From: a virus
Taxonomy: Duplodnaviria > Heunggongvirae > Uroviricota > Caudoviricetes
Strand: one strand, 5' to 3'
DNA: 25,289 nt
Virus record (IMG/VR): IMGVR_UViG_2531839265_000001
Coordinates: 1 to 25,289 of that record
The translations under genes and the position numbers were made by a program. The notes under the pieces were generated by a model that was given only the letters and a program-made list of their open reading frames with translations, did not search any database and was not told the DNA's origin. Of this stretch, positions 3,393-3,690 are shown piece after piece. Each line of letters begins with the position of its first letter. Position 1 is the first letter of the stretch.

Positions 3393-3575
3393 TCAGTTCT
3401 GCAGACACTGCCGAACACCGTCGACAATTTCACAGACCTGAGAAGCCGTATCGAAAAGCTGGCGCGCCTTATCCAGGCTAACGCATCCCACCAATAAAAA
3501 AGGCACCAGTATCGCTACCAGTGCCCATTTCGCTGCCGTTCGCGGCATTCTGTGTGTCCAGTGTTTTCGCGTCAT
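3393..3575 (-). CDS. small putative lipoprotein (60 aa)
   Basis: Track ORF; signal-peptide-like MPRTAAKWALVAILVPFLLVGC with lipobox LVGC. Its signal-peptide coding part coincides with repeat copy B. Confidence 0.4.
   Translation of the reverse strand: MTRKHWTHRMPRTAAKWALVAILVPFLLVGCVSLDKARQLFDTASQVCEIVDGVRQCLQN
3458..3525. repeat. 68-bp direct repeat, copy B
   Basis: See copy A at 2717-2784. Confidence 0.7.
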
Positions 3576-3576
3576 A

Positions 3577-3690
3577 TCACCACCAACGCACAGCCCAAAT
3601 CAGAACAGCGACCGCCACAAGGCGAATTGCAAAGGCCGCAGCCCTTGTCAAATCAAGGCTCGCGGGAGTTTCCACTTCAATACCTTTCAT
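3577..3690 (-). CDS. 37-aa single-pass membrane protein (hypothetical), stop overlaps the lipoprotein start
   Basis: ATG at 3690 then MKGIEVETPASLDLTRAAAFAIRLVAVAVLIWAVRWW-stop; TGA is followed two bases later by the ATG of the 3393..3575 gene. Below the ORF-track size cut-off. Confidence 0.3.
   Translation of the reverse strand: MKGIEVETPASLDLTRAAAFAIRLVAVAVLIWAVRWW

Follow-up and report, generated by a model that had tools for sequence, protein, structure and literature searches.

How does a phage of a Gram-negative host open the outer membrane if its lysis cassette carries no recognisable spanin? About 13-15% of the phages with Gram-negative hosts are in this situation, and the opening of the outer membrane is in their case an open question (PMC6139136; bioRxiv 515445). 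The same question is raised by a 25,289-nucleotide (nt) stretch of a caudoviral prophage (IMG/VR record IMGVR_UViG_2531839265_000001, positions 1 to 25,289), to which we refer as the window. Two small genes follow the endolysin gene there, one coding for a membrane peptide of 37 amino acids (aa) and one for a lipoprotein of 60 aa. A reading of the sequence alone (in the following the sequence-only reading) had suggested that the two could be an unusual spanin-like pair. Our comparison of prophage loci points to a different arrangement, in which the lipoprotein stands alone in the spanin position of the lysis cassette and the peptide belongs to an independent module. We give about an even chance to the reading that the lipoprotein is an outer-membrane lipopeptide acting at the last step of lysis without an inner-membrane spanin (i-spanin), with the peptide as an independent, translationally coupled accessory peptide of the inner membrane.

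The lipoprotein gene and the spanin slot

The two open reading frames (ORFs) occupy positions 3393-3690 on the minus strand, exactly as had been read before; they had also been described as overlapping, which is wrong, as the genes abut via TGA-T-ATG. We compared two sets of IMG/VR loci which were gathered independently and amount to 199 loci together, namely the best 80 of 271 matches of the lipoprotein and at least 119 loci retrieved with a degenerate DNA pattern for the C-terminus of the peptide; each is a biased sample. Among the IMG/VR prophage alleles the ratio of nonsynonymous to synonymous polymorphism (pN/pS) is 0.22 for the lipoprotein (60 distinct alleles; 0.17 for the mature part) and 0.11 for the peptide (13 distinct alleles), whereas the other two frames gave values of 1.0-3.8. 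Because the ratios in these frames are at least 1.0, the ORFs are more than chance ORFs, and judged by their alleles both are real genes under purifying selection. The junction which had been read as translational coupling is also retained: in all 110 peptide loci with enough downstream sequence the stop codon of the peptide is followed, after a single nucleotide, by the next start codon (TGAnATG). The proposal of two genuine small genes therefore holds.

Homologues are confined to the Enterobacterales (E. coli, Salmonella, Citrobacter, Cronobacter and Yersinia). When 1.84 billion cluster representatives were searched with a profile, only 24 relatives of the lipoprotein were obtained, among them a second subfamily with the same lipobox and the same two-cysteine pattern. 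Among 5426 complete genomes of E. coli, 317 carry the lipoprotein gene, with 501 copies in total, and the peptide together with its leader is found in 180 genomes. Both proteins belong to PHROG families listed there with unknown function, the lipoprotein to phrog_7528 (E=1.6e-38, residues 1-60 of 60) and the peptide to phrog_4493 (E=7e-16 to 3e-22). Neither matched Pfam (E up to 1), NCBIfam, PADLOC or the PDB sequences, Rfam gave nothing above threshold in the two-ORF region, and no experimental paper on either protein was found in the literature. Actinobacillus phage vB_Apl-pPE4 (PP818812.1) encodes the same holins together with a lipoprotein (20079-20258) that shares 96.7% identity with that of E. 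coli; the attribution to this host looks doubtful.

The 60-aa ORF (3575..3393) reads MTRKHWTHRMPRTAAKWALVAILVPFLLVGC followed by VSLDKARQLFDTASQVCEIVDGVRQCLQN. That it codes for a lipoprotein is supported by the canonical lipobox LLVG-C31, which conforms to the pattern [LVI][ASTVI][GAS]C; along with a basic n-region and a hydrophobic h-region the ORF thus has the features of a signal peptidase II substrate, and lipidation is predicted from the sequence. Position +2 is a valine and not an aspartate. The signal peptide of 30 residues consists of an unusually long, basic and conserved n-region of 17 residues (MxRKHWTHRxPR) and a hydrophobic core, with R3, H5, T7, H8, R9 and A18-P25 being invariant. 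The mature part has 29-30 residues and a net charge of -1; it contains no proline, which agrees with the earlier remark that the protein is not Pro-rich. C48 and C57 are invariant, and both cysteines as well as the lipobox are kept over four genera and the second subfamily. A heptad stripe S-A-L-A-V-V-V-L (hydrophobic moment 0.53) runs along the mature part with both cysteines beside it. AlphaFold returned one helix for residues 12-59 at low confidence (pLDDT 66), and the mature part is predicted to be one amphipathic helix. The PGAP annotation starts the protein at M10 (51 aa). Since this residue is replaced by T, V, I or A in many homologues, the true start is the ATG of the 60-aa ORF. A similarity to Rz/Rz1 or Bor had been denied for both ORFs, and our Pfam and PHROG searches also gave none; for the Bor/Iss family there was no Pfam match at E up to 1. 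Throughout the window, from the integrase gene to the terminase genes and in all six frames, no other ORF with a lipobox was detected.

The lysis region of the window contains the following features.

4467..4859, minus strand: first holin-family gene (PF16931; Pfam and PHROG matches)
4203..4477, minus strand: second holin-family gene (PF05449; Pfam match), frameshifted in the window
3823..4206, minus strand: endolysin, an M15 metallopeptidase without signal sequence (PF13539, phrog_465)
3780..3815, minus strand: terminator-like hairpin with T-runs on both sides (folding energy dG -21.8, z score -4.2)
3691..3779, minus strand: conserved leader of the peptide module, GTATAAA...TGAGGTTG..ATG, with the Shine-Dalgarno sequence GAGG at 3703..3700
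3577..3690, minus strand: gene of the 37-aa membrane peptide (ORF, phrog_4493, pN/pS as above)
3393..3575, minus strand: gene of the 60-aa prolipoprotein (ORF, lipobox, phrog_7528, pN/pS as above)

In E. coli, Salmonella, Citrobacter and Yersinia the cassette is built in the same way from a PF16931 holin, a PF05449 holin, an M15 or GH108 endolysin and the lipoprotein, and both holin families together with one of the two endolysin types are present at every lipoprotein locus with enough upstream sequence. As is expected of an outer-membrane spanin (o-spanin), the lipobox lipoprotein lies within the lysis cassette and is placed after the endolysin in four genera. At 44 of the 80 lipoprotein loci there is no upstream peptide, and in 34 of these the lipoprotein starts 14 nt past the M15 stop codon with its own Shine-Dalgarno sequence and no intervening terminator. 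The distance is 15 nt from the M15 endolysin in Citrobacter braakii, and in Yersinia enterocolitica the lipoprotein gene and that of the GH108 endolysin share 4 nt. Salmonella has an Ant-like gene between endolysin and lipoprotein; in phiP27, where the 37-aa ORF is missing, an opposite-strand 90-aa gene takes this place.

We then compared this position with related cassettes. The diversity of cassettes was drawn from a phage collection and from the contigs encoding the proteins, and a scan of genome contigs with a holin alignment gave three loci. Cassettes with holins 41-49% identical carry ordinary spanins at this place, namely gp51/gp52 in mEp390 (phrog_1026 and phrog_1275, 'Rz-like spanin') and Rz with embedded Rz1 in Cronobacter phage ENT39118, so that the slot is indeed one where spanins occur, as the sequence-only reading had stated. 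A metagenomic homologue of the lipoprotein (67% identical over 55 aa) is separated by 6 nt from the M15 endolysin in front of it, and a homologue of mEp390 gp53 follows closely. As gp53 comes after the spanin pair in mEp390, the lipoprotein exactly replaces the pair in the metagenomic relative. At the approximately 115 loci where the lipoprotein is intact no Rz match was obtained. Four IMG/VR loci and phage GER2 combine Rz/Rz1 with a copy of the lipoprotein gene, and there the copy is always a pseudogene with three in-frame stops. From the positional replacement, the mutual exclusion with Rz and the decay beside a spanin we infer that the lipoprotein supplies the outer-membrane step of lysis.

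The same position could also be occupied by cargo. The lipoprotein would then be an envelope moron parked at the boundary of lysis and packaging genes, serving exclusion like Cor or Llp, or fitness and virulence like Bor. This boundary does carry cargo, with PerC in the window, LT-II in Rac-SA53 and HNH, Ant, 90-aa and 93-aa ORFs elsewhere; moreover the lipoprotein is 77% identical between E. coli and Yersinia while the neighbouring holins are only 26-28% identical, suggesting a mobile module of its own. A moron is however difficult to reconcile with the tight endolysin junctions (an overlap of 4 nt and gaps of 6, 14 and 15 nt) lacking a promoter, with the strict tie to one type of two-holin cassette, with the mutual exclusion with Rz/Rz1 and the pseudogene decay beside them, and with the exact replacement of the mEp390 spanin pair. 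We consider this explanation unlikely, though it is the most serious of the rivals.

Alternatively the protein could be a functionless leftover o-spanin whose i-spanin has been lost, in prophages which lyse poorly or by shear. A cassette without i-spanin, an empty slot in some relatives and the frameshifted second holin of the window would fit. A relic should, however, hardly show a pN/pS of 0.22 (0.17 in the mature part), an invariant lipobox and two invariant cysteines over four genera and a second subfamily, and a spread of 501 copies over 317 of the 5426 E. coli genomes; what lost constraint looks like can be seen in the decayed copies beside Rz/Rz1. Of all the explanations considered here we find this one the least probable.

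The 37-aa peptide and the question of an i-spanin

The 37-aa ORF (3690..3577) reads MKGIEVETPASLDLTRAAAFAIRLVAVAVLIWAVRWW. An acidic N-tail of 16 residues is followed by a hydrophobic stretch (residues 17-35, Kyte-Doolittle value 2.05 over 19 residues) and the end RWW. With this one C-terminal hydrophobic segment the ORF is predicted to be a single-pass membrane peptide, as had been proposed. The acidic N-tail and the C-terminal RWW suggest that it is probably oriented N-out/C-in by analogy with the Pf3 coat protein. A 57-aa version with a GTG start was rejected, since the homologues, PGAP and the Shine-Dalgarno sequence of the shorter ORF favour the 37-aa ATG; the upstream in-frame part is the conserved leader. 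The last codons, TGG TGG TGA, provide a Shine-Dalgarno-like GGTGGTGA for the next gene.

This next gene is, among the 119 loci listed, a lambda-type Rz with embedded Rz1 in 80 and the lipoprotein in 37. The check for homologous pairs near endolysins thus confirmed that both genes are conserved in prophages and gave no obligate pairing. Judged by these gene orders, the peptide is an independent, recurrent small-membrane-protein module and not an obligate partner of the lipoprotein, and the idea of a dedicated spanin-like pair was not supported. The peptide occurs mostly before Rz/Rz1 (80/119), the lipoprotein mostly without the peptide (44/80), and the combined periplasmic length of 45 residues (16 + 29; 29 without the peptide) is below 62, the lower end of the 62-300 residues compiled by Kongari et al. 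(2018; PMC6139136) for the combined periplasmic lengths of spanins. An i-spanin typically combines a transmembrane segment at the N-terminus with a periplasmic domain of some size, and no such ORF is present in the cassette. The C-terminus of the lipoprotein, ...VRQCLQN, has no hydrophobic end of the kind found in unimolecular spanins (T1 gp11 type). A holin as hidden i-spanin was rejected as well, because neither holin has a periplasmic domain and the same families stand beside ordinary spanins in mEp390 and ENT39118.

A minimal two-component spanin would nevertheless be conceivable, with the peptide as type I i-spanin (N-out, C-terminal transmembrane segment) and the lipoprotein as o-spanin bridging both membranes. 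The two genes are adjacent, translationally coupled and in the spanin slot, a type I inner-membrane protein could serve as i-spanin (Kongari et al., PMC6139136), and the peptide has different C-terminal transmembrane alleles depending on the gene downstream. We regard this arrangement as very improbable. The peptide is missing in 44 of the 80 lipoprotein loci and also in Yersinia, Citrobacter, Salmonella and phiP27; in 80 of the 119 listed loci it precedes a complete Rz/Rz1; the periplasmic parts comprise only about 16 and 29 residues; and the N-tail is identical with either partner, the tracking of the alleles being explained by linkage. In detail, the N-terminal types of 37 aa (MKGIE..) and 28 aa (MSAD..) each occur with either downstream partner, and only the C-terminal half follows it, being LVAVAVLIWAVRWW with the lipoprotein and IVAIAVLVWAIRWW with Rz. 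We attribute this to linkage, with the recombination junction at the shared RAxAFAI[KR] motif.

The comparison also bears on a published assignment. Kongari et al. (2018; PMC6139136) list phiP27 under the 'separated' two-component spanins, and its combined periplasmic length of 62 residues is the shortest of their set. Its o-spanin (20706..20861, 51 aa, 30 periplasmic residues, 83% helical; PMC6139136) is the homologue of the window lipoprotein with 95% identity. As i-spanin a 64-aa ORF with a TTG start was chosen (20348..20542; PMC6139136). This ORF (4670-4864, plus strand, of our phiP27 locus L002) is antisense to the 90-aa gene (4654-4926, minus strand; phrog_36812). In a relative about 50% diverged (L036; pS 0.73, pN 0.35) the 90-aa ORF stays open and the i-spanin frame is broken by stops. 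The i-spanin ORF has no PHROG match and is missing from the window and from most lipoprotein loci. Being antisense to a conserved gene, interrupted in the relative, without PHROG match and rarely present, the ORF looks spurious on these comparisons, and the two-component assignment is probably wrong. The phiP27 system and the window share the o-spanin, while the i-spanin ORF of the one and the 37-aa ORF of the other are each without counterpart. That the phiP27 copy of the lipoprotein is an o-spanin was thus already proposed (PMC6139136); what the loci compared here would add is the lack of an i-spanin partner and the earlier mis-pairing.

The peptide does not travel alone. A strong hairpin with a U-run lies between the endolysin stop (3823) and the 37-aa ORF, confirming the location past a lysis terminator, and this terminator travels with the small ORFs of the peptide module, as does the conserved leader; the terminator is not present where the lipoprotein directly follows the endolysin. 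Cassettes of the 21-like type have two tandem paralogous ORFs of 48 and 28 aa between an SAR (signal-anchor-release) endolysin and Rz, the 48-aa peptide being covered by phrog_1115 and phrog_3246. Compared with these the gene of the window looks like a hybrid of the 48- and 28-aa ORFs. In some natural alleles (P0005, P0125, P0126, P0137, P0144 and P0149-P0152) a change of 1 nt fuses the peptide in frame to the lipoprotein, reads through the stop codon or frameshifts the end; the peptide gene is therefore not always kept intact. The constant position and the coupling to the gene in the spanin slot suggest that the peptide is an accessory modulator of lysis and no i-spanin.

A crude scan found no minus-strand promoter between the terminator and the ORFs, and for this reason the late transcript antiterminated by Q is probably the only one from which the two genes are expressed. 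On the plus strand there is a sigma-70-like site at 3693-3722 (TGGACA-18-TATACT, 10/12 matches), the only such match in 2.5 kb. It points into the bidirectional terminator so that an antisense RNA of about 85 nt is possible; a single sigma-70-like match is, however, within chance (1.7 expected). With such an RNA the peptide module could be a type I toxin-antitoxin-like unit in which the peptide is the hydrophobic toxin. Its size and hydrophobicity are as in type I toxins, the sole promoter match with its 10/12 positions is antisense to the leader, leaders of other types keep the -10 element (TATACT or TATAAT), and T-runs accompany the terminator on either strand. We think this improbable, because one promoter match lies within chance, because neither an Rfam family above threshold nor a sense promoter was found, and because the constant place before the spanin-slot gene and the translational coupling favour a role in lysis.

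Hairpins, repeats and neighbouring genes

The lipoprotein gene itself contains a second hairpin, which has a partial copy elsewhere in the window. The corresponding features and the remaining genes of the region are as follows.

3492..3526, minus strand: hairpin and U6 run within the region coding for the signal peptide, codons about 17-28 (dG -17.9, z score -4.8)
2818..3090, minus strand: PerC-family gene (family match)
2717..2784, minus strand: 68-nt copy, 96% identical to segment 3458-3525 of the lipoprotein gene, containing the hairpin, the lipobox and VSLDKARQ
1169..1678, minus strand: Nu1-type small terminase (family match)
5610-5919, minus strand: cluster of tRNA-Met, tRNA-Thr and tRNA-Gly just upstream of the lysis cassette

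In the 60 lipoprotein alleles the third positions of codons 16-26 are invariant. The hairpin (3526..3492) is identical in Yersinia and even in the homologue which is only 67% identical over 55 aa, and this conservation implies a constraint at the nucleotide level. The hairpin may be an intragenic terminator or attenuator passed only by the Q-modified polymerase. A second possibility is a hot spot of recombination, an idea which comes from the 68-nt duplicate of the hairpin flanking the PerC insertion. The 68-nt direct repeat (2717-2784 and 3458-3525) and a weaker 61-nt repeat (2667-2727 and 3294-3354) bracket the PerC gene and look like the scar of its insertion. The database proteins P0281 and P0299 look like recombinants across such repeats. 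On the plus strand, just past the lipoprotein stop codon, there is a GC-rich hairpin accompanied by a T-run (3340-3355). It would stop transcripts that run from the PerC side towards the lipoprotein gene; no gene was identified there on this strand.

The window is part of a lambdoid prophage running from the integrase-proximal end to the terminase genes, and all relevant genes are on the minus strand in the order tRNAs, PF16931 holin, PF05449 holin, M15 endolysin, terminator, 37-aa ORF, 60-aa ORF, PerC and Nu1-type small terminase. The tRNA cluster occupies the position where Stx phages keep tRNAs and toxin genes; in phiP27 the Stx2e genes are just upstream of the holins (1824-3059 of L002). 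In Rac-SA53 the LT-IIa enterotoxin genes are right behind the endolysin (4798-5938 of locus L206). The frame of the PF05449 holin is broken by a run of six T at 4409-4414, where E. coli SC407 and phiP27 have seven. Gene decay to a pseudogene, slippage in the homopolymer or an error of sequencing could each explain this; a frameshift that is real may impair the lysis cassette of this prophage. A homologue of the phiP27 gene L33 (115 aa) at 2301-2642 on the minus strand is split into two ORFs (2642..2490 and 2441..2301) and apparently disrupted. In the early region of the prophage, at 13188-13362 on the minus strand, Rfam detected the antitoxin RNA sok with 112 bits, which indicates a type I toxin-antitoxin locus of the hok/sok kind.

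A possible pathway for opening the outer membrane

The lipoprotein gene is the conserved fourth gene in a cassette of holin, holin, endolysin and lipoprotein within the lambdoid late operon. Holins and endolysin would first take away the cell wall, and the lipoprotein would then breach or destabilise the outer membrane without a partner in the inner membrane, as a functional substitute of a spanin rather than as a canonical o-spanin. The predicted helix, its heptad stripe and the invariant cysteines beside the stripe suggest that the mature part makes a short coiled coil, linked by disulfides, at the inner side of the outer membrane, and the protein probably forms disulfide-linked oligomers. 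A portable module of terminator, leader and small ORF is found inserted behind the endolysin and ahead of whichever gene fills the spanin slot, its peptide being coupled to either Rz/Rz1 or the lipoprotein by the ...TGG TGG TGA N ATG junction.

Several known systems resemble this proposal in part. Rz1 is Pro-rich and unstructured. The lipoprotein of the window shares with lambda Rz1 and other o-spanins the small size, the predicted outer-membrane location, the periplasmic cysteines and the same slot just after the endolysin; unlike Rz1 it has no i-spanin partner, no proline, a predicted helix and no sequence similarity. The colicin lysis proteins are prolipoproteins of 45-52 aa which are processed to lipopeptides of about 28-33 residues. 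They make the envelope permeable by way of OmpLA, and the signal peptide, which remains stable after cleavage, has a share in this. The window protein is similar to these bacteriocin release proteins (PF02402) in size (60 aa, 30 residues after processing) and lipobox, and its signal peptide is unusually conserved. It differs from them in being phage-borne and part of a late operon, and has no PF02402 match at E up to 1. By analogy it might possibly act like a bacteriocin release protein, with the lipopeptide and the conserved signal peptide both contributing and perhaps OmpLA. The 'disruptin' gp28 of phiKT is a single small, cationic and unanchored peptide which replaces the spanin in a spanin-less coliphage (bioRxiv 10.1101/515445). 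Both it and the lipoprotein are single small proteins, the latter however with a predicted lipid anchor and a net charge of -1. As the lipoprotein is too short and non-cationic, neither the spanin fusion model nor the disruptin model is directly transferable. The 37-aa peptide may be compared in concept with Lcc6 of LambdaSo, a lysis factor of very small size which spans the membrane once, accompanies holin, endolysin and spanin and acts at the holin step (bioRxiv 10.1101/2024.01.23.576932); the likeness is in size and lysis-cassette setting, and no sequence relationship is expected.

Several observations weigh against a partnerless lipopeptide with an accessory peptide. The helix of 29 residues (about 4 nm) is too short to reach the inner membrane, and it is non-cationic with its net charge of -1. 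Rac-SA53 and similar prophages carry toxin genes in the slot and neither spanin nor lipoprotein, so that the function of the slot may be dispensable. Morons are classically found where the lysis genes meet the packaging genes, and PerC, LT-II, HNH and Ant genes are inserted around the slot. The conserved terminator-like hairpin inside the lipoprotein gene is unexplained, the second holin of the window (PF05449) is frameshifted, and frameshifted alleles of the peptide exist. Furthermore, neither protein has a homologue of known function, both IMG/VR samples are biased, and the promoter scan was crude.

In a wider sense the lipoprotein could represent a third way of opening the outer membrane beyond spanins and the phiKT disruptin, by a single component that has displaced Rz/Rz1, and the peptides before the slot could be a new class of lysis modulators; we consider this generalisation rather doubtful at present.

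For annotation, the lipoprotein start moves to the ATG of the 60-aa ORF, two genes so far called 'hypothetical' gain a context, and membrane peptides of 28-48 aa are flagged as recurrent components of lysis cassettes. Of the 5426 E. coli genomes 317 contain a cassette with only a 30-residue lipopeptide at the spanin position, and so do the Shiga-toxin phages P27 and Stx2k. If the wider reading is true, a single lipid-anchored helix of about 30 residues would have displaced Rz/Rz1 in widespread enterobacterial prophages including the Stx2e phage P27. Through the lipoprotein cassette, the question of how spanin-less phages open the outer membrane becomes directly testable in E. coli.

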